A stretch of 64,000 bases of DNA from a virus, in IMG/VR virus record IMGVR_UViG_3300044675_002751, positions 24,090 to 88,089 of that record. One strand, 5' to 3'. The position numbers were made by a program, and so were the translations under genes. Below are positions 24,001 to 50,418 of the stretch, one piece after another. Position 1 is the stretch's first letter. Every line of letters begins with the position of its first letter. Under the pieces are notes generated by a model. That model was given only the letters and a program-made list of their open reading frames with translations, was not told where the DNA came from and did no database searches.

Positions 24001-27000
24001 AGTTATCTCTTATCTGTTCCCTAATAGCGTTATTATCTGTAAGGAAGAAACCTATGGATCTCAAAAACTGCAAAGCTTTTTCCTCATTAATAATAATATT
24101 GTCTTTACCAAATATTTGATAATATGGAAAGTCTTTAATAACCTGTTTAGTGTTCAGCTCATTACCAGCTGCAGACTTGTTAATATATGCACCACGGGGC
24201 ATTCCCTGAAACTGTGATACAAATGTTTTTTCTACCTGGCGGAACTGGGGAGATACTTCTGAAAACTCAAAACTAAATCCACCTTCACTGTCAGATATCA
24301 AACGTCCTTCTTTAATAGGTACTCTGTATACAGAAAAGTCTCTAAAGAAGTTGATCCATATCTTCATGTATGGCCAGTTCTTAGTTTGTGTATGGTCCAA
24401 CGGATTACGCATTCGGTCCACCAAGGCCTTTAGCTCAGGAAAACGTTGAGAAGCTTCTGATAACTTACCATACATCTGGTTAGTTGTATTAGAACCAGCC
24501 ACTGTATTTATTACAATACTCCAGGTTTTGTTAAAGTCAACCAATTTGGGTACACCTAAAGCATTAAGTACAGGATTACCTTTCCTATCTACTTGAGGAA
24601 GACTTTTGATAAGATATACTATCTCGTTAGATGCAAGTTCACGTACAGAGAGTTCGTTACCCTTACGCTCAAAAGCGTTCTGTCCATACTCTTCACGCAT
24701 CTGCTGTTCGGTCTTAGCCAGGGGATTTTCTGTGTCTTTAACTTCAGCAGCTTCTTCATTTACACTTTGGTCATACCCATCCATATCAACCACCCTGTCT
24801 TCAAATGTGAAGTAAGAGCTTCTTTTCTTATGGAAAGCAATGACACCAGTAGTTTGTTCACCCTTTGCCACCTTGGAGAAATCTCCCCAGTTTGCAAGAG
24901 CAAAGTCTAGAATACGTGCTGCAGCAGGTTTATCTACCAAATCTTCTCTCAGCTTTTCTAACTTATTTTTAATATCTATCTCATAAAGTGGACCTATTAA
25001 CTCAGGCCTGGTAAATATTGATCCAATGCTAAATTTGTAATCAGAAAGTGTAGATGCTATTAAAGAGTCTATAGTTTCTACTAGTGTAATAGAATCCTGG
25101 TAGTTCAGTGACTCATCCACCTTTGGATCTACAGCCTCCATTCCTTTATTAAGAACACCAAACTGTACGTTCTTTATAGAAGGTGTATAATCATTGATGT
25201 CTCCTATATATAGTTTATCATATAGTTCTTGAATACCTTTAACAGCAGTACGGTCAGCAGCTATGTCTTTAAAGCTGTATCCGCTAAACAACTGCTTTAG
25301 AAAGTTCCATATCTTTCTAAAGAGGCTATTACGTACAGGACGTCCATTAATAACATTCTTACGGTCAGAGAGTACGTACTTTCTAAAGTCTTCTGCCATA
25401 AACTCTTCCAGCTGCATATCAGTGGCTGCACTAAACTTTACAGTGCGTCCGTCAGCAGTTTTAAAACTACCAGTAAGTTTACGGGCTTCATTATAAAGAG
25501 CTTTCTTCTGCTCTTTAGTTAAGAACATCTGTGAGAAAGCATGCCAACCCTCATGATAAAGATCTGTAAAGTTAGATCCGCTCCATAGTGTAATACCAGA
25601 AACAGTAAACTCAGCTAGTGCATTGGAGTTTACTACATTAAACATTACCTGAAAAGGAACAATCTTAGATAGTGGTGAGTTATTATACCACTTTTCAGCA
25701 GCATCAATCTGCTCTTTGGTAGCTGTACTATCAAGTAGTAAAGACTTTTTTAAAGAAAAGTCTGTACGGTCAAGCAATGCTTTAAACGCACTGACTGGGG
25801 TATCTGTAGGTGTAGACTGCTCTAAAGAAGAAGTTTGTTCTTTAGGCTGAACCTTTACCTCACCAAAAATCTTTTTCTGTGTTTCTGCAGTAGGGAATAT
25901 AGTATTATAAGCATTAAGGCTTACTATCTTACCCTCCTCATTTTTAGCCAGGTTAGTATAAAAGTTATCAGCCAAAAAGTTATTATAACGCTCTGGCTGC
26001 AGTGTCACCTTACCATCCAGGTTAACCGGCATATTAAAAGTTGTACCAACTAAGTCTTTATTAATGTTTACAGTTTGAGTGTTCAGGTTTGTTACAAACT
26101 TGTCCTTGTTCTCAGCTGTCACCTCAAAGGTCTCTCCACCTTGTTTGATCATAAGCTTACCATCTATCTCAAAGATGTTTGTATCATTAGAGAAAGTAAA
26201 CTGCTTTAGTGTTTTGATCTTGTCAATATTGGAAACGTCAGCGTTAAAGATCATATCAGCCAGGTTCGGTACTAGGCTAGGTATGTTCTGAAACTTAGGT
26301 CTGCGTATAAGAAGCGGAAACTCGTAATCTGGTACATTAAAATAAACACCCCCGTTAATAAGAATACCAGTTTCTTGGTTAGAAATCCAAGGTTTAAAAC
26401 CTTCAGGTAGCTCAATAGAACTTATAGAATTTTTCTTAGAAAAGTCTTCCTTTACATAACCGTTCTTACCTGGACTAACAGAAAACAATAACACCTGACT
26501 TGGGTTAGATATAATAAACTGTCTTGATTTTTCCAAGACATCCATTTCCTGGTTACGTTCTTTAGTAAGTTCTTCCACTGTACCAAAACCTTTTCGTACA
26601 AGATCTGCTACAGTTTGTACACGACCCACCATACGCTGACCTGCCACTTGTCCTTTAGCCTCGTTGCTCTTAGACGGTGTATATGGTCTACGCATCTTTC
26701 CATAAGCAATGACACCCTTATCTTTTTCTACAGGAGTTCCCTGTTGGTCAAAGTATAAAATATTACCCTGCTTGTCAGAAAATACAAGATATGTTTCATC
26801 ACCTTTATCCCTCTGCTCCATTTTCTGCTGAGCTGTTTTAGCAAACGGGGTTCCTGCAGCATCATCTGTAGAATAGTATTGTTTGTCTGCCTCTTGTAAT
26901 TGATCAAATGGAATCATAGAAGCAGGTATCAATCTTAAGTAGATACCAGTTACATTACCCAGAGTTAGTTTATCAGCTGTAGGTCTGTTGTACTGACTCA

Positions 27001-35401: not shown

Positions 35402-37963
35402 CTAGTTGTTACTACCTAAAGAAAGACTTGATCTCCTACGACTGGAAGATTTGGGGAATCCAAAAGCATCATATGACTGTGTATTTGTCTGACGAGCTCC
35501 TGTCAAAGCTTGTATAGTCAAACGCTCTGCCATTTGTTCTCTACGCTTTTCATCTTTAATATCTTTCAAGTTGTCATATATATTCTTATACGTAGTGTTT
35601 GCAGATGCTCCTAGATTATCTAGACCTCCAGCTCCATTAGTTCCATAACCTGAAGCATACTTAAATATGTCACCCGCATTTCCTTTAAAAATGGTTTTAT
35701 AGCTTGCAGGATCACGGTAGAAATATGGATCACGCATATTAATATCATAAAGATCACCACGGTTTTCCCAAGCTGCTCCAAACTTATCTGCAACATTAGC
35801 CAGATATTCCCTCTGTGCATTTTCATAAGCTTGTCTTGCACGTACAGAGTTATCATAACGATCTTTAGCGTTCATGGTATTATACATTGTCACCTTGTCT
35901 TTACGATCCTGTTCCCTGGCAGAAAACTCGTTAAACACACCTACAGATTGTAAAGCATTATTAGCAATAGTCTGACCAACTGCGTCTCCTGTTTTACCAG
36001 CAAGGAATGAAAGATTTGAAGCTAAAGCAGAAGCAGGTCCGTATGTTGCCTGTGTATCCCCGGCAATATTATATGTTTGTTGTAACTGTTGAGCCTGGCT
36101 TAACCAATCAGGTAAAGCATATTGTCCTTTTTGAAATGCCATGTCTGGTGAAAAAGGCATATATACATTAGGAGGAATAGCTCCAGCAGCAAGTAGATTT
36201 GCTACGTCCGGAGCCAAAAATCCAAACGGAGCTTGTCTTGTAGGTCTTAACTCATCTGGTTTTTTTAATGGATCAGGATCTGGATCTTTCTTTTTTTCCT
36301 CAACAGGAGGATCTTCCTTTTTAACAGGTTTTTCTTTCTTCACCCAAGCTGGAGCACTAAATGTATGCTGACCAAACTTATCATCCAGACCGTAAGCATC
36401 TTTACCACTAAAGTAAGACGGGTCTACATTTTTATTATACCATTCCTGGAACTTGCGTGTTGAACCAACTTTTGTAGGATCCCAATTAGGATTTTGTTTA
36501 AAGAACTCAGGAAACCTCTTTTTAAAGTCAGCCATTCGTGCTGCACTAGTCCAGTCTTCTTTTCCATATACACGTTTATTACCAATAGCACTTTGTGTAG
36601 CTGGCATGTTTTCATCAAACCCTTCTGGATATATAAGATCGTAATCTTCTTTCTTCTTAGGTTCCAATACTGTTGTCTTAAATGCTGGTTGATATGTAGG
36701 CACTGTACTGCTACCTTTCTTTCCTTGAAACTTAGGCATAACATACCCACCATATGCCATTTCAGAGGCACCTAATATGGCTTCACTAAGAGCTGGTGCA
36801 GGAAGGCCTTTCATAGCTTCTTGTACCATAGCCAGCTTAGCAAGCATTTCATTATTTTTTTCAAACATACGTTTATCAGAGTTTATGCCTATACTATCAC
36901 TCTCACGAGTCTTATCTTCTAATCTGGCTTTGTAGTCATTGAGTTTAAACTTCTTTGCTATGGTTGCAGGTGTTACACCACCAGCTTTGTAACTCACACC
37001 AAACATTGCTAATATTTCTGGATCTTTAATCTTCATTTTCTTAGTATCTGAAAATATAAACGATCCTGCTGGAGCTTGTTCCTCAGTAAGCTTAGTACCA
37101 TTGTTATAGTGTCTTTCTCCACCTATAACAAAATGAGTACCGTCTGGACGCCATATAGTTTCTCCTCTTTCAGCTTCTAAGACTTTCATACCCGACTTTT
37201 CACTCATAGCATTTGTAGCTGTTTCAGAAGATGAATCTTCCATATCTGTGTACACCTTCCTGCGGCCAAGATCTAAACCATAGTTTGACTGTCCGCCATA
37301 TTCCATTTTAGGTGCACTTGTAATACGTATTTTCATAGGATTAATATTAGATTGTCCACCATAAGCAAACATACCTTCATTAGGTGTTGGTAGTTTATTA
37401 GGTTGAAATACACCAGAGTTTGTCATGTAGTTTCCTCTAAACATTTCAGTAGCCTGGGGATTAAGATTATTCATGTATTGCTGTCCTCTATCTTCATCTA
37501 GCTTTTTCTCATTTCCAAAATAGTTAGTAAAAAAATTACCAACATTTATTAGTCCTGTAGCTAAAGCACTATAAGCTCCAAGTTTTTTACCAAACTTATT
37601 AAAAGGACTTGCTTTAACGTCCTCAGTTGTGGTAGCAGTCTTTTGACTTGAGTTCATAGGATTAGAAGCTGTTCCCTCATTACCTGTAGTTTTGAAAGCG
37701 TTAGTAGGTAAACCTTTTTTACGTCTGTCACTAAACTCTCTCATCTTTTCAAATAATCTTTTTTCAGCTTCTGCCTCTTGTGGAGTGACACACTTCTGTA
37801 GTACTGCACTATAAGTTTGACCAGGAGGACATGTAGATGAATCACTAGGTTGATTATAAAAGTTTGCTGGATCATTCTCCCATTCAGAATGCCAACCAAC
37901 CTGGCTGGGTTCTTCATCACCCTGAAACTTTCTAACACCTTTTTTTGTAATACGTATTTTCAT
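35402..37963 (-). CDS. crAss-like virion cargo protein with xxGG motifs and an internal MKIRIT duplication
   Basis: EAERGE..GERHYNNGT..FIFSD motif recalled from crAss-like structural proteins; FAYGG, MEYGG, MAYGG. Confidence 0.7.
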   Translation of the reverse strand: MKIRITKKGVRKFQGDEEPSQVGWHSEWENDPANFYNQPSDSSTCPPGQTYSAVLQKCVTPQEAEAEKRLFEKMREFSDRRKKGLPTNAFKTTGNEGTASNPMNSSQKTATTTEDVKASPFNKFGKKLGAYSALATGLINVGNFFTNYFGNEKKLDEDRGQQYMNNLNPQATEMFRGNYMTNSGVFQPNKLPTPNEGMFAYGGQSNINPMKIRITSAPKMEYGGQSNYGLDLGRRKVYTDMEDSSSETATNAMSEKSGMKVLEAERGETIWRPDGTHFVIGGERHYNNGTKLTEEQAPAGSFIFSDTKKMKIKDPEILAMFGVSYKAGGVTPATIAKKFKLNDYKARLEDKTRESDSIGINSDKRMFEKNNEMLAKLAMVQEAMKGLPAPALSEAILGASEMAYGGYVMPKFQGKKGSSTVPTYQPAFKTTVLEPKKKEDYDLIYPEGFDENMPATQSAIGNKRVYGKEDWTSAARMADFKKRFPEFFKQNPNWDPTKVGSTRKFQEWYNKNVDPSYFSGKDAYGLDDKFGQHTFSAPAWVKKEKPVKKEDPPVEEKKKDPDPDPLKKPDELRPTRQAPFGFLAPDVANLLAAGAIPPNVYMPFSPDMAFQKGQYALPDWLSQAQQLQQTYNIAGDTQATYGPASALASNLSFLAGKTGDAVGQTIANNALQSVGVFNEFSAREQDRKDKVTMYNTMNAKDRYDNSVRARQAYENAQREYLANVADKFGAAWENRGDLYDINMRDPYFYRDPASYKTIFKGNAGDIFKYASGYGTNGAGGLDNLGASANTTYKNIYDNLKDIKDEKRREQMAERLTIQALTGARQTNTQSYDAFGFPKSSSRRRSSLSLGSNN

Positions 37964-37966
37964 AAG

Positions 37967-39301
37967 TTAGAGTATTTCAAATTCATAACCTTGAGCACGG
38001 AGTTGTTCTAGTTGTGCAGGACTTACTTCCATCTCTTGACCTACAACAGGACCTCCTTGTCTATAACTAGCAGTTGGCATAAACTCAGGAATATATCCTC
38101 CATAAGCATAACCTGCATTCCCAGACCAAGTTGGAGTTTTTGATCTCTGACGTCTACCATTATAATCTATATAACCACCCCTACCATATATCATTGAATA
38201 GTCTACATCTTCGTCATCATCATCTGCAGAAGAACTTTCTTCTTGAGCAGCAGGAACTTCTTGTTCAGATGATTCTTCTTCATCTACTTCTTCTACATCT
38301 TCTTCATACTCTTCCTGAGCTTCTGGCATATCCTGTTGATCCGCTTGAACTATTTCTTGATACATCTGCATAAGAAGTTGCTCTTGTTCTTCTTCACTTC
38401 TTTGCTGTAATTCACCAACAATAGCTTCTACAGACATAGCTGAATAATCAGCATATGCTTGTATTATTTCTTCTGCAGAAGGCATGTTTTCCAACTCACC
38501 ACCATCTTGCCAGGTAGCTCTAGCAAATGCTCTGAAGTATGGATTCTTATCCAGGTTCTTTTTATGACGAGCATAAAAGGCTTTTTTCCTTTCAGGATCT
38601 CTTGGATGCTGACCAAGCTTTGAGTCACCAAAGTATTTAACAGTACCATCAGGTCCTGTTACTTTATGTGTTTTTCCTTTTCTATCATTGCTTCTGCTTA
38701 CAACATATCCACCTTTTTTCATTTTTTCCATTTGCTCAGAAGCTTCAGGACCATACATTAAATAGTCAGATATAGCATCTGCACTATGATCCATAACAGC
38801 TAGCTTAGAAGCAATCCACGGATCAAGATTCTCATCTGGTTTTATAAACTTCAACAGCTTACTCATTTTATCAGATACAGCAGCCATCTGACCCATTGCC
38901 ATTTCACCATTAGCTTCTCCACCATCTGCCATAAACGGATAAGCCATACCACCATATGCCATGTTTTCAATAATCTTAGCCTGAACATATTCAGGGAGGG
39001 CTTGAAAACCTGCGTTCTGAGGTTCTCCACCTTGAGCCATAGAACTCATCTTTTGTTGAAGAGCATTACCTGAATACCCTTGAGCTTTAAGCTGTGCTTC
39101 TAAAAGCCAATTAGGTTTACCACCATCTGCCATCATTGGTATTTCCATACCATATTCAGCTTTACGCCAGGTTCCACCTTTACCTTTGTACCACTTAGCA
39201 GCCCAGCCGTTAGCATAAGCACTTGGATATACATCAAATTTTTGTTTAGCTAAAGACTTAGCTTTAGACCACAGACTGGGGTTATTAGGTTTGTTTGCCA
39301 T
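37967..39301 (-). CDS. Modular virion cargo protein with nine [MYW]xxGG motifs
   Basis: Short distinct modules separated by MADGG, MAQGG, MAYGG, MADGG, MKKGG, WQDGG, YGRGG, YAYGG, YRQGG. Confidence 0.7.
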   Translation of the reverse strand: MANKPNNPSLWSKAKSLAKQKFDVYPSAYANGWAAKWYKGKGGTWRKAEYGMEIPMMADGGKPNWLLEAQLKAQGYSGNALQQKMSSMAQGGEPQNAGFQALPEYVQAKIIENMAYGGMAYPFMADGGEANGEMAMGQMAAVSDKMSKLLKFIKPDENLDPWIASKLAVMDHSADAISDYLMYGPEASEQMEKMKKGGYVVSRSNDRKGKTHKVTGPDGTVKYFGDSKLGQHPRDPERKKAFYARHKKNLDKNPYFRAFARATWQDGGELENMPSAEEIIQAYADYSAMSVEAIVGELQQRSEEEQEQLLMQMYQEIVQADQQDMPEAQEEYEEDVEEVDEEESSEQEVPAAQEESSSADDDDEDVDYSMIYGRGGYIDYNGRRQRSKTPTWSGNAGYAYGGYIPEFMPTASYRQGGPVVGQEMEVSPAQLEQLRAQGYEFEIL

Positions 39302-39309
39302 AGGATATA

Positions 39310-42300
39310 TTAATTTCTTTTATGATTGTAGTTAATACGTTGAGATGATGTCTTATTTCTTTTAAACTTAGCTTTCTCAGCAGAACTCATTTCAGATGAA
39401 GTCTTTGGAGTTTCAGAAGATACTCTTTTAGAAGGACGACATGCAGGATAACCTTTACGACTTTCTCCTTCTTGTCTACCACAAGTTTTTCCTGTCTTTA
39501 CATCAACCCACTTTTCAGCAAACCATCTGTCCAATCCACCGTGCTGACCACCTTTGGCCATCATATTAATTTCTCCACCTTGTTTCTTTTGAAAGAATAA
39601 TGGCAGATTCTCTGTTTTATTTTTAACATACTGCATATAACCACCTGGACTCAAAAAAGATTTAGGATTAATATCATATATATCATATACTCCTTTCTTA
39701 GAGTTAAACTTGACATTACCAGATACATTATCAACATCTAAAGCAATACCTTTATCTCTTAACTGTTTTGCTTGTTTAAGAAATAGTGCGTAAGCATCTC
39801 TACTTGATAGATTTAGTTTTTCAACATTAGTATTATTAAGATTATCCATAATACTAACTTCATTTTTTGTAGGACCAGTACCTTTCCATACTGACGGAGT
39901 ATCAAAGTTTTGATATTTAACAGGTATGGCAATATTACCTGTACCTCTCATGGACTGTACACTTTCTAATAACTCAGGAGTCCATTGATTACCAAAGGGT
40001 CTTCCCAACTTAATTACACTTTGCGGATGATTTTTAAACTCATACACAGAACCATAAGTACCTTGACCTAGTTTTTTACCAAATGGTGTTTTATCTATCA
40101 AAGAGTTTTCATAATCACTTCTACCTTTCTGTAGTTCTTTAAAATCAATTTTCTTTTTTGCACGTAGAATTTCTAATTTTTTATTATTTTCTGCAATAGA
40201 CTGAACATATTGCGGAAACCCACTTTGTAAATCTATTGTTTCTGGACTTACTTCTTTAGTATATCCCTTCCACCAATGTGGTTTATCTCCTACGTTTTTA
40301 AAACCGAAAGGATTAGAAAGATTACGGTTTAATTTATAAGCATTTTTTAAAGCGGTATTCTCTGTAAGATACTTACCTGCAACTTTTGTTCCTTGGTTAA
40401 CTGCACCTGGAACTTTACCCAAAGCCCCTGCTGCTTTTGGTATCATAGAAGGAGCTACATTAACAACGTCTTCAGCAAAGTTTGCAAAGTTTCCAACACC
40501 TGTGTTACTAGGATTGAAGTATCTATTACCGGCATCCATAGTCAGATTGGCAAAAGATCTTCCTGGTGAGGTGAATATACTAGTAGCAACATCAGCAACA
40601 GGATTGCCTGTGTTTGTTAGCATGTTAGCACCTCTCAAAATTCTTGCTCTTAATGAATTATCTTTTAACAAATAACTTTGTTCCTCAACTGATTTGTTAG
40701 GATTGTAATCAGGATGCATCTGAGTACGATAGCTGTCGTTGTTAACCTTTTCAATAATACTGTTTGCTTTTGCATCTTTAGTTCTTACGGCTCTTCTAGC
40801 ATGAGCTTCTGAATAACCCCCTTTGTTTATTAATGCTTGAACTTGTTGCTCAGCTTTTTTATTAGATGATTCTTGAGCAGCTATTTGATTAGCAACCCTT
40901 CTATCTATACCGCTATTGGTACTACTAGCAACTGCTCTGGGTCTTTCAAAGTTAACCTGACCTCTTATTTGATAAGTTGGTAACTTACTATGCTGACCAC
41001 CTTTTTTAAAACTATCGTACATAGTCTCAGCACCCAAAGCACCAAGCAGAGCACGATTTGCCATTAAATTTGCATCAGTCATACCTTTCACTTTTGTAAA
41101 AGGTTCTATATAATTAACTCTTGGAATATTCCTAGTACCGGAAGGAAGATTAGCTTGTGGACTAAATGGATACAATGGTTGTCCTGGTTTTAAATATTTA
41201 CTATTTCTTCTGAATTCATTAAAACCTAAGAATGTAGGTAATGCAACAGATGCCGCATTAATTGCAGCATTGTCGTAGTTTCCTTTACGAGTTTCCATAC
41301 CTGCCTGAAATGCGTCTACTCCACTACCTAACATATTGCCTATTTTTCCGACAGCCTGTCCTATAGGATGAGGTATAAAATTACCAGCCTGCATTGCGTC
41401 TGTTATTACATCTGCATAACCCAGTCCTTTGTTAAGAAGTTTTTCTGCTTTTCTCCAGTTGTAAAATTGTTGTCTTACAGCGTCAGGAGTAGATGACCGA
41501 GGTTGTAAAACAGGTTGTTCTTTTTTAGAAGCACGCTGAGCATGTTGTTTTAAATGCTCCATCTTTAGTTGGTCAGAAGTCTTCTTTACTACAGGTTTTT
41601 TTACATAAGTAGAATTAGACATTATAGGATCTACTACATTAGTGTTTTGTCCACCACTATCAAATCTTTTAAAACTACCTACACCTGGATTAGGAGCAAT
41701 CTGAGGTTGTTTCCATTTAAACAATGGTATATTATCTGGTTTACTATAATTAAACGTCATAGGCATCTCATGACCAGTAACTGCATTTATCTGATCTTCC
41801 ATATATTTATATGGTTTAGATGCGTACAAAGGAGATCTGTAACTAAGAGGTACACTATTTTTATTATACAAGTTATCTGCTAACAAATCCTTAGGAGCAG
41901 CTTTTATAAGTGTAGTTCTTCTTGGGTATAAAAACTTATTTCTTGGTATTATATACTCATTAGGATTCATTTCAAATCTAGATGTATTCTGACTCTCTTT
42001 AAGAGCTACTATATCCTTATCACCTTTAATATTCTTTTTCCAAAAAGGTACTTTGTATTCAGTTAAACGTAAGTCTTTTCCATCCAACAACCCACGATTA
42101 CTAGCATACTGACCTATCTCTGCAAGACTTGAAGTAGTCCAATCTCCTTTTTCATAAACTTTTTTTGCTAAGTCATTAGCTTCATAACCAAGTTTATTAC
42201 CCCCAACAGCTTCTACTCTGTATGTTCTTTTAGGATAAATAGCTCTATCTATTTTTTGAGGAATATTCTTGAAAAATGGCTCAGCAAATTTTTCACCGGC

Positions 42301-43728
42301 ACCTGCTATCAATGGTAGTCCTATTGATGTTACATATGGTAGTATTGAATTTTCTTGTTTAGCCATTAACGGAGCAGTACCTAACCCGCCTGCTACAGAA
42401 GTAACTAAACTTAAAGGGTTAAGATAGTTATCAAAAAATGATTCATTATCTTCATTAAACCTACCTCTTTGTTCAACTGCTTTACCTTGTACATAAGACT
42501 TTTCCCTCCAATCCATTTGATCAAACGTCTTTTTTTCTCCTGTAGGTAAAACATATGGCTGTCCTTGATCAACAGCAGCAACTGCAGATTTTCTATCTGC
42601 AACTCTCTCAGCAAGTTCTTTTTTTTGTATTTTATTTTGCTCTGCAATCCAATCAAGTCTTTTTTTGTTAGCAAGCTCTGGAGTATTTGTAGCTTGAATT
42701 GGTTTATTATTACTTCCTAAATAATAGCTTTTGGGTGCTCCTTGACTTTTTATTGGCTTACCATATTTTTTTACATAATCTGTAACACTATTAAGTTCTC
42801 CGCCAACTTGTTTAATGTGACGTATGTACATGTCAAGATCCTTGTTTTTTCTGAGGATATTATCACGTATATCCATTACACGTTTTCCATACAAAGGATT
42901 CTTACGCATATCTATCCCTTCTTTAGGAACAGGTACACCATAAATCTTCTTCATTTTAAAACCATGATAATCCTGCTCAGTTTCTGGAAAAACCTTACCC
43001 AAACCATTATAAGTCTGGAATCTCATTTCAGGATCCTTGTAACCAAGCTTATCAGCATATTGCATTTTAGTAGCAATAGCTCTTGCGTATACGTCAAAAT
43101 CATCTACGTCTCCATCATCTAATTTGCTTGGTATAATTTGGTTTCCTTCCAATAAGTAATGTCCTACTGGACCATCACTTATTTTACCCCAACCAGTCTC
43201 TTGAAGATCAATAGCCAAGGCATCATAAGGATCTATACCATATCTTTTAGCAGCTTTAACTATACCATAAATTCTATCACTAGGATATTTACCGGTTAAG
43301 AGTTCTACATTAGGATTAATAGGTTTACCAGTTGTCCTGCTAACCTTACGAGAATCTTTTATGTACATTTCTTTAGGTAGTGTAAGTACAACACCTTTTT
43401 TCTTTGGTTGTTCCATACCAAACAAGTTCCTAAGATCTGCAGCTATAGATGAAAACCAACCAGTTTCTTCACCACCATTTTGCATTAACGGATATTCTCT
43501 TACAGGCTTAGAAGGAAAATAATAATCCTGCCCATCTTTCATATACTGACGCGTACCATCAGGAGAAACACCGATAGCATCAAACCCAACTCCTTTCATA
43601 GTAATATGCTGAGAGTTGATATCTGTCACCTGACCTGGTGTTTGCCACTGGTTTTTGGGCGTACGAACTTTCTTAGGCTTAGCTAAGTTGTTCATAATCT
43701 GCGTAAGTAGTTTACCGTTGTGACTCAT
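39310..43728 (-). CDS. Polyvalent cargo protein with lysozyme/SLT-like, ART-like, kinase-like and C-terminal DUF5872-like modules
   Basis: AAKRYGIDP..AIDLQETG..YNG; YR..WTTSS..NEY; LGQGTYGSVY..VIK; GLDRWFAEKWVD..CGR..YPACRP. Confidence 0.7.
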   Translation of the reverse strand: MSHNGKLLTQIMNNLAKPKKVRTPKNQWQTPGQVTDINSQHITMKGVGFDAIGVSPDGTRQYMKDGQDYYFPSKPVREYPLMQNGGEETGWFSSIAADLRNLFGMEQPKKKGVVLTLPKEMYIKDSRKVSRTTGKPINPNVELLTGKYPSDRIYGIVKAAKRYGIDPYDALAIDLQETGWGKISDGPVGHYLLEGNQIIPSKLDDGDVDDFDVYARAIATKMQYADKLGYKDPEMRFQTYNGLGKVFPETEQDYHGFKMKKIYGVPVPKEGIDMRKNPLYGKRVMDIRDNILRKNKDLDMYIRHIKQVGGELNSVTDYVKKYGKPIKSQGAPKSYYLGSNNKPIQATNTPELANKKRLDWIAEQNKIQKKELAERVADRKSAVAAVDQGQPYVLPTGEKKTFDQMDWREKSYVQGKAVEQRGRFNEDNESFFDNYLNPLSLVTSVAGGLGTAPLMAKQENSILPYVTSIGLPLIAGAGEKFAEPFFKNIPQKIDRAIYPKRTYRVEAVGGNKLGYEANDLAKKVYEKGDWTTSSLAEIGQYASNRGLLDGKDLRLTEYKVPFWKKNIKGDKDIVALKESQNTSRFEMNPNEYIIPRNKFLYPRRTTLIKAAPKDLLADNLYNKNSVPLSYRSPLYASKPYKYMEDQINAVTGHEMPMTFNYSKPDNIPLFKWKQPQIAPNPGVGSFKRFDSGGQNTNVVDPIMSNSTYVKKPVVKKTSDQLKMEHLKQHAQRASKKEQPVLQPRSSTPDAVRQQFYNWRKAEKLLNKGLGYADVITDAMQAGNFIPHPIGQAVGKIGNMLGSGVDAFQAGMETRKGNYDNAAINAASVALPTFLGFNEFRRNSKYLKPGQPLYPFSPQANLPSGTRNIPRVNYIEPFTKVKGMTDANLMANRALLGALGAETMYDSFKKGGQHSKLPTYQIRGQVNFERPRAVASSTNSGIDRRVANQIAAQESSNKKAEQQVQALINKGGYSEAHARRAVRTKDAKANSIIEKVNNDSYRTQMHPDYNPNKSVEEQSYLLKDNSLRARILRGANMLTNTGNPVADVATSIFTSPGRSFANLTMDAGNRYFNPSNTGVGNFANFAEDVVNVAPSMIPKAAGALGKVPGAVNQGTKVAGKYLTENTALKNAYKLNRNLSNPFGFKNVGDKPHWWKGYTKEVSPETIDLQSGFPQYVQSIAENNKKLEILRAKKKIDFKELQKGRSDYENSLIDKTPFGKKLGQGTYGSVYEFKNHPQSVIKLGRPFGNQWTPELLESVQSMRGTGNIAIPVKYQNFDTPSVWKGTGPTKNEVSIMDNLNNTNVEKLNLSSRDAYALFLKQAKQLRDKGIALDVDNVSGNVKFNSKKGVYDIYDINPKSFLSPGGYMQYVKNKTENLPLFFQKKQGGEINMMAKGGQHGGLDRWFAEKWVDVKTGKTCGRQEGESRKGYPACRPSKRVSSETPKTSSEMSSAEKAKFKRNKTSSQRINYNHKRN

Positions 43729-46700
43729 TATCTAGGTGATTGAAGAAGTTTTTGGTTAGATAACTTGAATATTATTTTACTATCCCCACTCTTAAGTTTT
43801 CTAAGCCATACACGATTTACATTGTGACGAAACTTTTTACGTTCTAATACAGGCTTTTGATAGTTTACATATTGTGGATTAATCTGAAATTCATATCCGT
43901 TAGACCTAGTAAGGAACATTGGAATATCTGCAGAAGTAAACTCCCCACGGTTTCTGGTAATGTCCCAGAACTGGTTAAACCTGTATTTATTTTCTTCTTT
44001 AGAATAAAGTATCTTGATAGAAGTCTGACCCACTTGAGGATATGACAACATAGAAACAGGATTAACCTTACTCTTTAATTCCATCTCTAAAAGACCAGAT
44101 ATCTGCTCTGAGTTATAAATCATAGCATAATCAAAAGCCTGATCTAAAACATGAAACTTGTCTCCACACTCATTGTAGTATTTATAAGTTTCCATTAAGT
44201 ATTCTATATTACGTACAGAGTTAACCATCTGACCTGTAGCTGAAACAAACTCCACTTCAAACGGGTAATCAACACCGTAATAATTGCAGAACAAATCACA
44301 ACGGCTATTGTGTTTCCAGATAGAGTTACGGTTAACACTCATAAAGTGAGCTTTACCTGGAATAACGTATGTTGGTTTCCAGTCATGAAAACTCAACCAC
44401 ATTTTACTTTTAGGGTCATATGATATAGTCCATGAAGCATCCTCCCAGGCAGATCTATCAGAAAACGGATAGTAGGTTTTTATTCCGTCAATTATTTTAT
44501 AAAAGCCGTTACTGTCATAAATAAGATCTTTCATTAAAGGCTTGTAGTCCTTTTTAGAAATATAAATTATCTCATTTGTATTGTCATATATCATCTGTAC
44601 ACCAATACCTTGAACAGGGTTATCAGATAATGGATAATCAGGATATACCTTTAAAAGGTCACTAGGAAGATATCTGCTGAACCACCACTTCATTCCATCA
44701 CGTGAAATCTCATTAAGACCGCCTGCAAACTGAAATACTTTACCTTGGTCTTGGCTTACCCAGAATACACCATATGTACAGTTAAGAGTAGCCCATTTAC
44801 TTTGGCAAGATCCGTATTCATAACTCTCATCTACATTAACAACATTTTGTAACTGTTGTGCCCCACTAAATAAAGCTCCGTCTCCTATTGTAATCTTAGC
44901 ACCTGTAGCATCTAGCTTAAGCTCCTCCTGACCCATAAACTGCAGCGGACTCTGCCTTCTCATCATAAACAAAGCACCTGTTCGGTTAATAGGTTTTACA
45001 GCAGTGATAGGTGAGCCAAAATCTTTATAGTTATTAGCTAGGTATACACGCCAGCTATCTTTCTTTGCTTCCATTTGCTGTGGAAGAGAGTAGATTACCC
45101 TGTCCGGATAATAAGAGTAACAGGTCTCTGCTTTTTTAGGATCAAAGTCACGCGGGAATATATTACCCCAAGTAATCTGAGAACCAAAAAGTTTAGCAAC
45201 ACTTAAAGAGTAATCATATTTATAGTAGTTGCCTTCTTTAATAATATCACTACGAAACATCTGAGGATAGTCTTTATACTCATATGGATCATAGTGACGT
45301 TTAGCCGGAGTATCTTCCCAATCACGGTAAGCTAGATTTATTTCACTCTCTACATAAAAGTCACGCACACCGCTATAAAATAAATAGAAATAACCTTGTG
45401 CTACAAAAAACAGGGAGCTGTCCAGTTCATCAAGGCTTCTGTTATTAGCTACATTAGAAAATATGCGGAAACTTTGACGAGTAGAGTCAATCCAAAAACG
45501 TGGATATGCAATAGCTGCATATGCTCGGTAGTCAAACTCTGTCAAGTCTGGTTCACCCATCAACCAGGTGTTAAAGAAAAAGAAAGAGTTCTTTTCTGTA
45601 AAACGATTGATATAAACATCACCACCAAAAAATATCTCACTTTTATATTTAGCTGCTGGATTGTTAGCAGCTTGTACACAATAACTAATTGGCAGTTGTT
45701 TAATAGATTCAAGTTGACCATACTGAGATGGGACTGTCACCTTTACAGCTCCATAGTGTCCAGAAATAGTACTCTCCCCCATTCTATTAATTCTACCAAT
45801 AGAATTAAAACGAAACCTACTATTATCTACTACTGATGGATTGGTTATCTCTCTGTCAATCTTTAATCCAACAAAACCAGAACGGTTTACATTATTGATT
45901 GTATGATCAGCGTCAAAGCTATGAACACTATTTCCAATATATCCACTTTTTTCTATTCTGTATCTTCTATAATTCTCAGCTTTAGTAGATGCATTATCAT
46001 AAAAACCGTGAGAGTCATATTGTAAAGCATTCTGACGTTTTGGAATCATGCCGTATACAATATTCATAATCTGCTCACCAATCATGTTAGATTCCAAGAC
46101 TGTCATTGCTATAGCCATTGTAGCATTATAAACACCAATAATGGTATTCTCAACAGCAACAACTGGGTTTGGAAACATTACGCTACCACCTGTACCTAAA
46201 ACTTCAGCACTACCACCAATAGCATAATTTGGTTTCTTAGTAAGACTTAACTTCTTATCATATGGTAATTCCTGAGTTCCTGCTAAAGTAATATTCATAT
46301 CTTGTGCCATAACAGAAAGCACATTACCAACACTTACTATTACAGAAATAACACTACTAAATATACCGGCAAAGTTTGTCGGGGTTTTAAATTTAGGATG
46401 CTTATAAGGATGACTAAAAAATCCTTGGCTTTTACCACTAATTTCTTGATACACTTTTAACTCACTTACACCTAAAAAAGGTTTTGTAAATGATGTATCA
46501 GGACTGTGAAAAGATAAATAGTCTTTTTTATATTTAGATAAAGGACTATCTAAACTAGCTTCAGAACGACCTGTTTTTCCTGCTTTTAATTTATCTCTTT
46601 GCTCTCTTAGTTTCTTTTTAGCTGCTCTTCGATCGGCACGCCTTTGCCTAGCTTCCTGCCTCCTTCTACGTTTGCCTGCTTTTTCATCCTCCTCATCTTC

Positions 46701-48515
46701 ATCATCATACTGATCTTCAGATGTGTCTGTAACTTGTAATAATTCATCATCATCTGGTCCAATAACTCCCGCAAGACTAGGATCAATTAATGCCACTTCA
46801 GAAGTTAAAAGATAGTCAGTATCTAAGTCATTATATGGATAGTTTTGATACAAGCCATTAACTCTTGTACCAGGTATATCATACTCTCTTAAATTATTAA
46901 GTAGTCCTTTTGCAACAATAGATTTATTACCCTGGCGTGATCCACGAAGTATTTCGTAACCCACAATAGATAGTATTGGATTACCATACCTATCTAAAGG
47001 GTGTGTTATATTCTCAAACTGTACACCAAGAATAGTAATCTTGTCAGATGTGTTATTATAATTGTTTAATAATATAGAAACTGTTTCATCTGGCATCTTG
47101 TGATGACGTATAGGCTTACCGCATAATTCTGCCCAGATATCTTGACGATTATCAGGATAGCGTTCTGTAGACTCCCAGTAAGCCATCTTACCGGTAGCTT
47201 TAACTAAACCACCATCAGCTAATGTAGATGGAGTAATAGATTCTACTGTACCTGTATTTTGCACCTGCCAACGTTTCTTGTTCTCTACAGTGTCAGCAGA
47301 TCCAACTGTTTCAAAAGCATCACCACCAAACACTTGTGTTTCTTCACCCGGTAAAGGTGCACGACCAGGAATGTGATAAGAATCCGAACGTTCTCCAGTA
47401 TTATACACCCAACGAATAAAAAACGAGTATTGCTCGTCTTTCATATATCCAGTGTTATTACCAGCCTTATTATAATAATCTGCAGGATACTCCACTGCCA
47501 CCCAGCTTGTACGAATCTTATTAGCTTGAGGTTGATAGTTAAACTTTGTTTTAGAATATACACCTACACGAAGAGCGTAGTTATTTACTTGATATATAGC
47601 ATCAGACTTTTCAATAGGCTCAGTTCTTACTACTACATCTGCAATAGGAATAGAAATTTGCTCATTGCTAATATTGTCTATATAAATAGTTCCCTGGTTA
47701 GTAGAATAATAACCAACACGGCGTGCTATAGTTTGTGAGTTTACCTGTGCAACAAGTACTAGTTCAAACTCATCAAAGTTCTTGTCTACATCTACAATTG
47801 TTACTTCTAAAGAAGATACTACATTCTGATGGTCAAATAAAGACTGCACTTCACTTAAACCAATATAGTCTGTAATTCTAACTTGATTAATAGTATAAGC
47901 AAGACACACCTGGTAAGATCCATTAGGAAGTGTACCTGCACTCTTGCCTTTTTTTATAGTGAGACAAGGGTGTTCTACAAGAGTTGCTATACGGATTCTT
48001 TCACAATCCAACTGGTTTGTAAAAGTTTTGATAGCACAGTCATTAACTATCTGGGTAGTATACTTAAAAGGAGGATTATCAAGATCCATAAACCTATCAG
48101 GGTTCAGGCCGTCTGACCAATAAACCGGACGATCACAGTCAAAGCGTTTTCTGGAAATACCAGTAATAAGATGTGTGCGTTTAAAGTTTAAACAGGGATC
48201 ATTTACCTTCTTTGTATAAAGACATCTGCTTTCATCAAAAATTCCAATCTCTGAGTTTTTATCATCTGTTGTAAATACTGCCCACTGATCGTCAGTGAGA
48301 TGCACACAACCAATAAGATGATAAGGAAGAGTTACACAATGTAAGTTAGCTGGCTCATTACCTACAACCCCTGTCTGACCATCATGTGAATTATTAACCA
48401 AGTTTCGGGCATGTGTCCACAAACCCTCTCCAACGAAAGTCTCGTTTATATCTTTTACCATTCCTTTAGTAAAGGAATTAGTAACGGCCCCTGGATTCTG
48501 TTTTTGTTCAGCCAT
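43728..48515 (-). CDS. crAss-like tail stabilisation/muzzle protein
   Basis: NSFTKGMVKD..NEPAN N-terminus, beta-propeller-like segments, FFGGDVYINRF, WTISY..WLSFHDW; follows the tail ring genes. Confidence 0.8.
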   Translation of the reverse strand: MAEQKQNPGAVTNSFTKGMVKDINETFVGEGLWTHARNLVNNSHDGQTGVVGNEPANLHCVTLPYHLIGCVHLTDDQWAVFTTDDKNSEIGIFDESRCLYTKKVNDPCLNFKRTHLITGISRKRFDCDRPVYWSDGLNPDRFMDLDNPPFKYTTQIVNDCAIKTFTNQLDCERIRIATLVEHPCLTIKKGKSAGTLPNGSYQVCLAYTINQVRITDYIGLSEVQSLFDHQNVVSSLEVTIVDVDKNFDEFELVLVAQVNSQTIARRVGYYSTNQGTIYIDNISNEQISIPIADVVVRTEPIEKSDAIYQVNNYALRVGVYSKTKFNYQPQANKIRTSWVAVEYPADYYNKAGNNTGYMKDEQYSFFIRWVYNTGERSDSYHIPGRAPLPGEETQVFGGDAFETVGSADTVENKKRWQVQNTGTVESITPSTLADGGLVKATGKMAYWESTERYPDNRQDIWAELCGKPIRHHKMPDETVSILLNNYNNTSDKITILGVQFENITHPLDRYGNPILSIVGYEILRGSRQGNKSIVAKGLLNNLREYDIPGTRVNGLYQNYPYNDLDTDYLLTSEVALIDPSLAGVIGPDDDELLQVTDTSEDQYDDEDEEDEKAGKRRRRQEARQRRADRRAAKKKLREQRDKLKAGKTGRSEASLDSPLSKYKKDYLSFHSPDTSFTKPFLGVSELKVYQEISGKSQGFFSHPYKHPKFKTPTNFAGIFSSVISVIVSVGNVLSVMAQDMNITLAGTQELPYDKKLSLTKKPNYAIGGSAEVLGTGGSVMFPNPVVAVENTIIGVYNATMAIAMTVLESNMIGEQIMNIVYGMIPKRQNALQYDSHGFYDNASTKAENYRRYRIEKSGYIGNSVHSFDADHTINNVNRSGFVGLKIDREITNPSVVDNSRFRFNSIGRINRMGESTISGHYGAVKVTVPSQYGQLESIKQLPISYCVQAANNPAAKYKSEIFFGGDVYINRFTEKNSFFFFNTWLMGEPDLTEFDYRAYAAIAYPRFWIDSTRQSFRIFSNVANNRSLDELDSSLFFVAQGYFYLFYSGVRDFYVESEINLAYRDWEDTPAKRHYDPYEYKDYPQMFRSDIIKEGNYYKYDYSLSVAKLFGSQITWGNIFPRDFDPKKAETCYSYYPDRVIYSLPQQMEAKKDSWRVYLANNYKDFGSPITAVKPINRTGALFMMRRQSPLQFMGQEELKLDATGAKITIGDGALFSGAQQLQNVVNVDESYEYGSCQSKWATLNCTYGVFWVSQDQGKVFQFAGGLNEISRDGMKWWFSRYLPSDLLKVYPDYPLSDNPVQGIGVQMIYDNTNEIIYISKKDYKPLMKDLIYDSNGFYKIIDGIKTYYPFSDRSAWEDASWTISYDPKSKMWLSFHDWKPTYVIPGKAHFMSVNRNSIWKHNSRCDLFCNYYGVDYPFEVEFVSATGQMVNSVRNIEYLMETYKYYNECGDKFHVLDQAFDYAMIYNSEQISGLLEMELKSKVNPVSMLSYPQVGQTSIKILYSKEENKYRFNQFWDITRNRGEFTSADIPMFLTRSNGYEFQINPQYVNYQKPVLERKKFRHNVNRVWLRKLKSGDSKIIFKLSNQKLLQSPR

Positions 48516-48918
48516 GTTTTACTTGTAGCTTCTTCTTTTCTAAAAACTTATAGAGAGATTCTGTGATATGTCCAGCCATCCATGCCTGGGCTTCTTCATC
48601 TGTAATCCCTCTGTCTTCTGTTATTCTAACCGCTGCATGAAATATTTCATGAGCTATTGTGTTATGCGTGATGTAACCCTTTTCAATCATAAGGTAGTAA
48701 GTATCCATATTTGGCATTACCAACACACCTTCTGCCTCATCTTCAAACTCATCTTTAATATTATACTTCTTATATATTTTTTCTACGCTGTTCTTGACAT
48801 TGTCTACAACGGCAATTACAAGCTTGCAACCATATGTTGGAAACTTGATAGTAGTAGACGGTTGCCTGGTTTTTTTACCAGCCGTAACCTGACTTGAACA
48901 TATCGTAGTATCTTGCAT
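48508..48918 (-). CDS. Small zincin-like metallopeptidase-fold protein (start uncertain)
   Basis: TIAHEIFH...DEEAQAW. Confidence 0.65.
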   Translation of the reverse strand: MQDTTICSSQVTAGKKTRQPSTTIKFPTYGCKLVIAVVDNVKNSVEKIYKKYNIKDEFEDEAEGVLVMPNMDTYYLMIEKGYITHNTIAHEIFHAAVRITEDRGITDEEAQAWMAGHITESLYKFLEKKKLQVKHG

Positions 48919-49741
48919 ATTGAGCCTTGCGGTTTGTTTCCCAGAGCTGCTTCATTTCAGCAAAGTCCGGAGTGTTAACAATAGTGAGAGCATTATTACG
49001 GGCTGCTCTTAACCTCTGCTCAACAAGCTGCATCTTCTGTGACACTTCTTCACCGTTCATGTACAAGTTTTCTAGGATACGCTGCTTGATAGCATACTCA
49101 TAGTACTCATTGATCATTGGATGATCTAGTACTAAAAGGTTTCCTTCATGATCTTCCAATGCACCCTGATAAGAAATAAAAAGTTTTCCTTCTTCTACAT
49201 TAGTGTAGATGAAACCATTCTTTATGTATCCGGCTTTATGAGATGTACTAAGAGCATCCTTTCTTCCACTTACAGGATCAATATGGATTCTGTCAAAGGT
49301 TTCATACGTTCTGGTTTCATAAGAACGTTTCTCCACCACCTGTACAAATATGTTTTCACCGGTCTTGCATTCTACAGCATATGTTTTTTCACAACTGCAA
49401 GTAGGATCAGGAGCACCACATTTCTTACATAAGTTAGAAGAAAGAATAATGTTTTCTGTCTGGCGGCCCTGGAGTACAGGCTGAGATACTGTGTACTTAC
49501 CACACAGCATAGCATAGTTTAGTACATAGAAATCATCCGGCAGCTTAGTCTTGCTTTTCTCTATATCTAAAACTTTCTCTTTAGTTCCATGTATTCTTAA
49601 ACCAAGATCATAATTTACTCTCTGGGCAACTTTAATAAGCTGACCAGGTTCAATCATACCCTCGTTGTTATACTGAGTAAAATCTGTAGCTACCTCGTTA
49701 AGCAGCTCATCAAACGTGCGGTATTTCGGCTCTGTTTTCAT
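48875..49741 (-). CDS. Putative tail ring/adaptor protein
   Basis: KLPDDFY, YIKNGFIYTN, ISYQG..D.EG pattern; synteny with the crAss-like tail module. Confidence 0.65.
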   Translation of the reverse strand: MKTEPKYRTFDELLNEVATDFTQYNNEGMIEPGQLIKVAQRVNYDLGLRIHGTKEKVLDIEKSKTKLPDDFYVLNYAMLCGKYTVSQPVLQGRQTENIILSSNLCKKCGAPDPTCSCEKTYAVECKTGENIFVQVVEKRSYETRTYETFDRIHIDPVSGRKDALSTSHKAGYIKNGFIYTNVEEGKLFISYQGALEDHEGNLLVLDHPMINEYYEYAIKQRILENLYMNGEEVSQKMQLVEQRLRAARNNALTIVNTPDFAEMKQLWETNRKAQYARYYDMFKSGYGW

Positions 49742-49746
49742 GGCAG

Positions 49747-50418
49747 TTAACGGGCAATATTTTGTTTGTCATTAATAGGATCAGGAGTAATACTTAACAT
49801 ACCTGTAAGATCTTTGTATACAGCAGCCTCAAGTTCACCAAGTAAGTAATCAGGGACATTAAAAGTTTGGTCTGATTTTACTACGCAGCTGTCTGCCTCA
49901 CATGTAAATGCAGATATGTCATCTTCAAACACACCTTCTATACGTACAGCATCCCATTCCAAATCAGGGAAATAGATATAATCATCCAGATACCAGTAGT
50001 ACTTAGTCTTGTTGTATTTGAAGTTCTTACTCTTAGACATTGCCAGGTAAGAACTCGGAACTGTAGGTTGCATTTCTTGTGATCCATCTAAAGAAGCTAT
50101 GGTACGAATCAACGGACCCCAGTAGCCCTGCATAAACATGGGCATCTTATCTTTCGTACGCTTTATCTTACAGTCAGAAGTAAGTCCTGTGCATCCTGCT
50201 TCTATCTTATCTACCTCAATTAATTCTACAAAATCCATCATTTGCAAGACACCAGAAAAAGACAAAATCCTATTCTTAGAATCTTCTCTCTTAAGTAACC
50301 ATTTAGAATGTTTATTTACAAAAGAGTATATAACTCGGTCAGTCAGTAAAGCATCTTGCCTTACTGCTTTTACCTGAGAACGAATTCTTGAGAGTACATC
50401 TCCAATGGTAGTTTTCAT
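49747..50418 (-). CDS. Putative tail tubular/ring protein
   Basis: TDRVIY, YYWYLDDYIYFP, IEGVFED motifs; synteny. Confidence 0.65.
   Translation of the reverse strand: MKTTIGDVLSRIRSQVKAVRQDALLTDRVIYSFVNKHSKWLLKREDSKNRILSFSGVLQMMDFVELIEVDKIEAGCTGLTSDCKIKRTKDKMPMFMQGYWGPLIRTIASLDGSQEMQPTVPSSYLAMSKSKNFKYNKTKYYWYLDDYIYFPDLEWDAVRIEGVFEDDISAFTCEADSCVVKSDQTFNVPDYLLGELEAAVYKDLTGMLSITPDPINDKQNIAR

Follow-up and report, generated by a model that had tools for sequence, protein, structure and literature searches.

A Recurrent Gly-Gly Joint Peptide at Module Boundaries in Predicted Cargo Proteins of an Uncultured crAss-like Phage

Results

Recurrent Motif in Three Consecutive Proteins

We analyzed a 64,000-nucleotide (nt) stretch of DNA (hereafter, the window) comprising bases 24090–88089 of the 88-kb uncultured virus record IMGVR_UViG_3300044675_002751 from IMG/VR, which is ~70% complete. 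Three consecutive open reading frames (ORFs) on the minus strand, P0001, P0002, and P0003, carry many copies of a five-residue motif with a bulky residue three places before a Gly-Gly (GG) pair. The motif is a real, family-wide pattern, common to thousands of relatives. In P0001 and P0002, joints bearing the motif are the places where modules were gained, lost, swapped, fused, or split. Judged by gene order, the products of the three ORFs are predicted to be cargo proteins that an uncultured crAss-like phage packs into its virion and injects. The ORFs are located in the window as follows:

39310–43728, minus strand: P0001, predicted modular cargo protein, 1472 amino acids (aa), directly following the muzzle-position gene
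37967–39301, minus strand: P0002, predicted beads-on-a-string cargo protein, 444 aa; all ten GG pairs are motif copies
35402–37963, minus strand: P0003, protein in cargo position, 853 aa; five motif copies, all within residues 199–406

Motif copies were identified with the regular expression [MFYWK]..GG, which matched six times in P0001, 10 times in P0002, and five times in P0003. An earlier note on this DNA had recognized the pattern and put its frequency in the three genes at ~18; the pattern stood, and the count rose to 21. The ORFs and coordinates quoted there for MQNGG, KQVGG, FDSGG, FKKGG, and MAKGG were all correct. The nine copies ascribed to the 444-aa ORF are actually ten, KGKGG being the tenth, and the FAYGG, MEYGG, and MAYGG copies ascribed to the 853-aa ORF are present but form an incomplete list, as FVIGG and YKAGG also fit. 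The enrichment test against the rest of the proteome that the note had proposed came out clearly positive: the motif accounts for 21 of the 27 GG pairs in the three ORFs, whereas the 81 remaining ORFs of the record have 120 GG pairs, 21 of them in a motif (Fisher P = 3.9e-9). Motif density per residue was 9x higher in the three ORFs than in the other ORFs (P = 5e-11). When each protein was shuffled 5000 times, the observed count was reached in none of the shuffles for P0002, 33 for P0003, and 98 for P0001, so the signal is overwhelming in P0002 and moderate in P0003 and P0001 taken singly.

The pattern extends to the relatives of P0002, of which there are >4000 of similar length, plus 919 longer ones. 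A family logo was built from 239 of them, containing 3903 GG pairs, 78% of which have M, Y, K, F, or W at position -3 (M 36%, Y 16%, K 12%, F 8%, W 6%). At this position, Met is enriched 7x and Leu is depleted to 0.4x. The commonest residues directly after GG are E (18%) and Y (17%). The glycine codons of the motif (GGT 62%, GGA 31%) are used as they are outside the motif, and the mean identity between motif copies at the DNA level is only 8.9 of 15 nt, which together point to selection on the peptide rather than on the DNA.

Conservation in relatives differs between copies and thereby allows true copies to be told from chance ones. Among the ten copies of P0002, the motif is kept in 34–94% of relatives. 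At GG pairs that lack the upstream residue and do not lie next to a motif (P0001 447 and 509; P0003 779), the whole motif is kept in 0 relatives. YKAGG of P0003, which is poorly conserved, is probably a chance copy. The 21 copies, all on the minus strand, are listed below with their window coordinates; fractions give the relatives in which the motif is kept, unless stated otherwise.

43471–43485: MQNGG, P0001 82–86, joint after the N-module; kept in 100/107, breakpoints cluster at 84–89
42799–42813: KQVGG, P0001 306–310; kept in 12/16, breakpoints 309–314
41650–41664: FDSGG, P0001 689–693; kept in 2 of only 4 covering relatives, breakpoints 684–694
40996–41010: FKKGG, P0001 907–911; kept in 2/5 covering relatives, breakpoints 911 and 916
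39574–39588: KKQGG, P0001 1381–1385; whole motif in 8/49, GG in 26/49, breakpoints 1379–1393
39547–39561: MAKGG, P0001 1390–1394, joint before the DUF5872 C-half; GG in 82/83, whole motif in 54/83
39173–39187: KGKGG, P0002 39–43, inside the DUF5872 N-half module; kept in 211/242
39119–39133: MADGG, P0002 57–61, in a low-confidence linker; kept in 181/256
39026–39040: MAQGG, P0002 88–92, ends helix 78–89; kept in 198/287
38948–38962: MAYGG, P0002 114–118, ends helix 104–118; kept in 268/302
38918–38932: MADGG, P0002 124–128, in linker 116–130; kept in 247/303
38708–38722: MKKGG, P0002 194–198, joint before the DUF5754-like module, ends helix 185–196; kept in 284/326
38498–38512: WQDGG, P0002 264–268, strongest mosaic breakpoint (51 alignments end at 268); kept in 292/310
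38174–38188: YGRGG, P0002 372–376, after an acidic tract; kept in 42/125
38096–38110: YAYGG, P0002 398–402 (33 alignments start at 401); kept in 79/158
38051–38065: YRQGG, P0002 413–417, followed by Pro, joint before the conserved C-terminal module; GG kept in 170/178
37355–37369: FAYGG, P0003 199–203; kept in 14/27
37292–37306: MEYGG, P0003 220–224; kept in 48/64
37118–37132: FVIGG, P0003 278–282; kept in 37/67
36977–36991: YKAGG, P0003 325–329; kept in 10/67
36746–36760: MAYGG, P0003 402–406; GG kept in 42/52, whole motif in 12/52

Joints, Linkers, and Breakpoints

Modeling of P0002 with AlphaFold2 from 38 sequences predicted confident small modules at residues 62–91, 198–266, 272–329, and 418–444, with low-confidence linkers between them. 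All ten GG pairs lie inside or abut linkers with a predicted local distance difference test (pLDDT) score <50, and five of the ten copies lie 0–2 residues past a predicted helix end.

The relatives of the three proteins are strongly mosaic. We defined breakpoints as the distinct ends of insertions, deletions, and replacements in collinear alignments against 797 related proteins and ORFs. In P0001, 23 of 51 breakpoints fell within four residues of a motif (5% expected, P = 7e-17), and in P0002, 36 of 65 did so (29% expected, P = 6e-6). These P values are generous, because alignment ends tend to halt at conserved residues; still, the motifs cover just 5% of the P0001 sequence, and the clustering there is unmistakable. 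In P0003, none of the 23 breakpoints was near a motif. The proposals that most of the copies sit at module boundaries and that module gain and loss break at them were thus borne out for P0001 and P0002 and failed for P0003. The related proposal of module shuffling via the motif gained support: the joints mark swaps, insertions, deletions, fusions, and splits, and effector-like modules occur in the cargo position.

The boundary between P0001 and P0002 provides a fusion and fission series. In the window, it consists of a stop codon, 8 nt, and a start codon (39302–39309). In 32 relatives, the same boundary is fused in frame and reads INYQHRR-[KMQ]-[EQ]-x-GG, followed by six mostly acidic residues and then MANKPNNP; the fusion joint is 11 residues long, and its motif part is mostly KEYGG or KEDGG. 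In 122 relatives, the protein begins at MANKPNNP. The joint, present in fusions and dropped when the genes separate, thus appears to be needed only when modules are fused. In another relative (P0011), the N-module of P0001 (residues 1–86) is fused at its MxNGG straight to a DUF5754-like module.

Genome Context

P0001–P0003 belong to a minus-strand block that also contains a tail fiber gene and the following features:

48875–50418, minus strand: crAss tail ring proteins 1 and 2 (Pfam CrAss_Ring_1, 3.5e-14; CrAss_Ring_2, 2.4e-18)
43728–48515, minus strand: 1595-aa virion structural protein in muzzle position (phrog_37948/15100); order as in crAss001 gp44–gp46

The ring protein matches place the phage among the crAss-like phages. 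After the 1595-aa gene, ORFs of 1472, 444, 853, 473, 622, 1470, 3199, and 2504 aa follow in this order. The arrangement matches that of Bacteroides phage crAss001, in which the muzzle gene (gp44) is followed by the cargo genes (gp45 and gp46) and the giant polymerase-associated proteins, and P0001, P0002, and P0003 accordingly hold the cargo position of a crAss-like phage. The crAss001 cargo proteins C1 (gp45) and C2 (gp46) are packaged and are expected to leave the virion first (Bayfield et al. 2023, PMC10172136); their genes likewise lie between the muzzle gene, which they directly follow, and those for the giant polymerase-associated proteins. P0001–P0003 have no detectable sequence similarity to the crAss001 cargo proteins, and a Pfam scan (E <= 0.1) detected no crAss cargo family in them. 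A nucleotide search of the region against cultured phages gave no match, and none of the cultured phages in the collection carries the P0001–P0003 modules, except for one small module in a cyanophage.

Module Content

The modules recognized in P0001 are:

Residues 1–86: N-module
Residues 157–194: lysozyme/glucosaminidase-like
Residues ~1165–1380: kinase-like
Residues 1392–1461: DUF5872 C-half

The last of these matched DUF5872 (PF19197) with 50 bits (gathering cut-off 27.5); the P0002 N-terminus matched the same family with only 17.7 bits. The two halves of DUF5872 are thus found in reversed order across the boundary, with the C-half ending P0001 and the N-half beginning P0002. The first ~40 residues of P0002 (window 39173–39301, minus strand) share 96% identity over 27 residues with the C-terminus of a 201-aa hypothetical protein (locus L091, 1039–1644) of the Synechococcus myophage Sf-CH8; as sequences go, this is an unusually high conservation across unrelated phage types. 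KGKGG is also found at the C-terminal end of a cyanophage protein.

The P0001 stretch 157–194 (window 43147–43260, minus strand) is weakly glucosaminidase/lysozyme-like (Pfam E 0.0024, below the cut-off) and would be in keeping with cell-wall opening by an ejected protein. The kinase-like module (window 39634–40221, minus strand; P0001 ~1170–1365) contains a Gly-rich loop GQGTYGSV, then VIK, and later DVDNVSGN. It has no Pfam match, and the protein language model look-alikes of residues 1165–1380 are all kinase-fold proteins: YrbL, OspG, T7 kinase, and RIO (0.92–0.93). Searches of the kinase-like and lysozyme-like parts against PDB sequences gave no matches. The kinase-like module may be an injected mini-kinase.

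In P0002, residues 198–266 resemble DUF5754 (PF19058), a family carried by relatives. The C-terminal module has a weak match to DUF7210, and two further modules match short PHROG families. Residues 330–371 (window 38189–38314, minus strand) form a 42-residue tract of nearly all Asp, Glu, and Ser, with a confident helical module on one side and the next joint on the other; close relatives have unrelated inserts instead. In P0003, the hexapeptide MKIRIT occurs twice, at residue 1 (37940–37963, minus strand) and residue 210 (37313–37336, minus strand), the second time between the FAYGG and MEYGG joints, which may indicate that part of the gene was duplicated or that there is a second start. Relatives also carry YkuD L,D-transpeptidase and ART-PolyVal domains.

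Possible Cleavage at the Joint

We consider the following explanation the best. P0001–P0003 are strings of small, independently folding modules, with each [M/Y/F/W/K]-x-x-G-G joint closing one module and opening a flexible linker to the next. The joint is kept by protein-level selection, and modules have been swapped, gained, lost, fused, and split there. We tentatively propose that the joint also serves as a recognition site where a protease divides the string into individual modules or peptides. Cutting would occur in the filled capsid or after injection, and the candidate proteases would be P0243, a small conserved protein with an HExxH motif whose gene immediately precedes that of the muzzle, or a host enzyme. 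A bolder version of this proposal, possible and in our view somewhat more doubtful, is a "polyprotein code": a previously unrecognized protease would cut all joints, freeing dozens of small effectors and peptides in the capsid or the host. This protease would be a small HExxH family member by the muzzle gene or a host enzyme, and the joints would allow effectors to be swapped freely.

The narrow choice of residues at -3, together with the depletion of Leu, favors recognition by a partner over a plain flexible linker, and the conservation of the joints in length and sequence also speaks for a partner. Polyprotein cutting is a strategy of eukaryotic viruses. In T4 and phiKZ-like phages, head and ejection proteins are cut at short motifs. 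A further precedent is provided by the polyvalent phage proteins, which are predicted to be processed into their parts by zincins (PMC5512222).

A number of results weigh against cutting. No cleavage products have been observed anywhere, and the structural paper on crAss001 reports no processing and treats C1 as one chain (PMC10172136). None of the 239 P0002 relatives of the logo has its C-terminus at GG. In the same set, Pro shows no depletion directly after GG (0.8x), and the best-conserved joint is itself followed by Pro; ~37% of adjacent copies are <20 residues apart, so that cuts at all copies would yield peptides of 5–15 residues. To these can be added the P0003 breakpoints, none of which lies within four residues of the motif. 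Finally, proteases were sought in this record and 18 relatives that are at least 90% complete, all with motif-rich cargo ORFs. Pfam profiles with positive controls detected Peptidase_C48 (Ulp1/SENP), Peptidase_S78 (HK97-type), C39, and ClpP in none of the 19 records. The 2504-aa protein contains a zincin (560–760), which we rejected as the processing enzyme, as it is absent from 18 of 18 motif-rich relatives, and P0243 was undetectable in five of the 18, even with a broadened profile.

The same search found adenain (Peptidase_C5) and T4-type Peptidase_S77 in none of the 19 records, with controls that were silent for both. P0001–P0003 contain neither an HExxH motif nor a Pfam peptidase family; HExxH motifs were located in the 2504-aa protein, the 3199-aa protein, and the 136-aa ORF P0243. 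In the giant polymerase-like 3199-aa ORF, HEGWH is found at residue 687 (window 25550–25570, minus strand). The ~200 residues around it were matched in 6 of 18 relatives by a single-sequence search and are too divergent to judge; the region may be a zincin-like domain. Such a domain has reportedly been seen in the N4 virion polymerase.

48508–48918, minus strand: P0243, small conserved HExxH protein of 136 aa; phrog_1365, function unknown; overlaps the ends of the ring-1 and muzzle genes

P0243 has the signature HNTIAHExxH...R...E, in which H90, E91, H94, Arg103, and E109 are invariant, two divergent homologues included. Its AlphaFold2 model (pLDDT 89) has the order strand-strand-helix-strand-strand-helix-helix, with HExxH on the sixth element. 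Profiles and a language model gave sub-threshold hints of a SprT-like (8 of 33 members, best E 0.011) or M78-like zincin (Peptidase_M78 look-alike, score 0.88). Foldseek searches with the model returned nothing below E 0.1, the best hits of a VIA wide fold search (Z 5.7) were unrelated ribosome-silencing-factor-like folds, and no PDB sequence matched. P0243 was detectable in 13 of the 18 near-complete relatives, strongly in 11 and as divergent copies elsewhere in the genome in two. With five motif-rich relatives lacking it, P0243 is ruled out as an obligatory partner of the motif. A complex prediction for P0243 and the joint-rich segment 76–140 of P0002 scored 0.00, which counts neither for nor against binding. 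P0243 may be a minimal zincin of the late operon, and we regard it as a candidate protease.

Alternative Explanations

The joint might instead be an uncut hinge or threading element, with the string remaining whole and its modules unfolding and passing through the portal and tail channel serially. We consider this doubtful. Here, the Gly-Gly would end a module, often as a helix cap, and give a flexible, perhaps elastic, linker, and the bulky residue at -3 would pack on the preceding module or grip the channel. The helix ends that precede half of the P0002 copies suit a hinge, as do the failure of the protease searches in the 19 records, the tolerance of Pro after GG, and the tandem Tyr/Met/Gly/Pro-rich units such as GGYIPE-MxYGG, which resemble repeat linkers. 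In crAss001, moreover, C1 was read as a single chain, partly in the capsid and partly in the tail (PMC10172136), and its resolved pieces, 214–245 and 425–552, are flanked by related aromatic-A-x-GG peptides. However, the other half of the P0002 copies is not beside a helix, and a generic cap or linker should favor Leu at -3, where Leu is depleted and Met enriched. Nor would a hinge lead one to expect such strong conservation of linker length and sequence, the 11-residue P0001/P0002 joint being near-identical across the 32 fusions. A docking or "sticker" motif is less likely still. Such a motif would be multivalent and bind the portal, a ring protein, the capsid interior, or itself, thereby condensing the cargo during assembly. 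Many closely spaced copies are typical of multivalent short motifs, and M, Y, F, W, and K without L, I, and V are typical of pocket or pi-type contacts. The motif is also confined to cargo genes beside the muzzle gene, and in crAss001, the portal and ring proteins serve as docking sites for parts of C1 (PMC10172136). On the other hand, the copies in P0001 sit at the ends of modules and do not form free arrays, gene splits remove the joint instead of retaining it, and there is no known partner, the portal and capsid genes lying outside the 88-kb record. The other packaged proteins of the block (473, 622, 1470, 3199, and 2504 aa), including the polymerase-like one, lack the motif. This, together with the loss of the joint at the gene split, also makes it unlikely that the motif is a general capsid-loading tag, as the earlier note had considered.

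The two remaining explanations are effectively excluded. The motif could be a DNA-level recombination signal, a short homology for module shuffling with the peptide as a by-product; the clustering of breakpoints at the motif and the extreme mosaicism would agree with this. Such a signal is nevertheless very improbable given the ordinary use of Gly codons, the low identity between copies at the DNA level, and a -3 position that varies over five amino acids with unrelated codons. Least credible of all is an effect of chance or of the composition of Gly-, Met-, and Tyr-rich proteins. It could draw on the moderate shuffling results of P0001 and P0003 taken singly, on a residue class that was picked in the earlier note after viewing the data, and on the poor conservation of YKAGG. 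Against it stand the enrichment over the rest of the proteome, the P0002 shuffles, the same logo over the 3903 GG pairs of relatives, and a position-specific conservation far above that of non-motif GG pairs. For P0001 and P0002, a chance origin is already refuted.

Discussion

The crAss-like phages rank among the most abundant known viruses, and the joint peptide offers a concrete, mutable handle on the unsolved question of how their large protein cargo is loaded, organized, and delivered. Cutting at the joints would mean that a major phage order uses a polyprotein strategy involving an unknown protease; uncut joints would probably be what enables a folded string to move through the tail. Either way, the joints mark the limits of a large collection of tiny modules that are highly conserved, some of them common to cyanophages and giant viruses. 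The kinase-like, cell-wall-active, and ADP-ribosyltransferase modules make good candidates for factors that take over the host early in infection. We found no description of the motif in the literature searched. New here are the breakpoint statistics, the fusion and fission series at the P0001/P0002 boundary, the systematic protease search with two zincin candidates rejected and P0243 as a lead, and the mapping onto crAss001 C1.

Comparison with Known Systems

The sites processed by the adenovirus, African swine fever virus (ASFV), SUMO/ubiquitin, and bacteriocin C39 proteases likewise have two glycines after a hydrophobic residue. In those sites, the hydrophobic residue is two places before GG, and Leu, Ile, or Met is preferred. 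The joint described here has it one place further upstream, three residues before GG, and disfavors Leu and Ile; the frequent Pro after GG is a further difference from Gly-Gly processing sites. The likeness to adenovirus, ASFV, and SUMO-type sites that the earlier note had drawn is thus out of register, at odds with Leu at 0.4x, and unaccompanied by a C48 match in the 19 records.

In the prohead-protease systems of T4, phiKZ, and SPN3US, a short conserved motif likewise recurs in proteins packed with the DNA, and small internal proteins are released from precursors. Their motifs end in Glu (LxE, S/A/G-x-E), and a protease gene is present, whereas no HK97-type protease was found in the 19 records. 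crAss-like phages are podovirus-like and are not known to have a maturation protease.

In crAss001, whose cargo genes have the same position, gp45 (locus L082, 11988–14516) is also rich in GG, with 21 pairs. Only five of them fit the regular expression, which is approximately the background rate, and several read aromatic-A-x-GG or A-F-GG. By cryo-electron microscopy, C1 residues 214–245 were resolved in the tail barrel and 425–552 on the portal (PMC10172136). The first piece is flanked by SAYGG (206–210) and FAEGGG (260–265), the second by NAFGG (424–428) and FAYGG (559–563). The motif is absent from the cargo genes of phi14:2, a cultured phage. We also re-matched the crAss001 gel peak lists (PMC6235969 source data), bands 3–9, to the crAss001 proteome. 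These bands gave gp50/gp47, gp49/gp44, portal, gp26/gp22, gp25, and gp23 at the expected sizes. Nearly all peaks assignable to gp45 also fit a protein known in that band, and there was no convincing gp45 signal at >=70 kDa in the published peak lists, though the equimolar portal protein was seen.

DUF5872 and DUF5754 are small viral domains whose function is unknown in every context; relatives of the proteins described here carry both.

The polyvalent proteins (Iyer, Burroughs, Anand, de Souza, Aravind 2017, PMC5512222) frequently, not obligatorily, contain a zincin-like peptidase; P0001–P0003 contain no zincin domain. That work mentions neither glycine nor linkers, and the present joint is thus not described in it. 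In organization, however, polyvalent proteins resemble P0001–P0003, as they likewise combine unrelated small domains in one injected, mosaic polypeptide. Several unrelated effector-type domains occur here too, namely the glucosaminidase-like, DUF5872, and kinase-like modules, with YkuD and ART-PolyVal in relatives, and the ART-PolyVal domain, carried by one relative, is found in polyvalent proteins as well.

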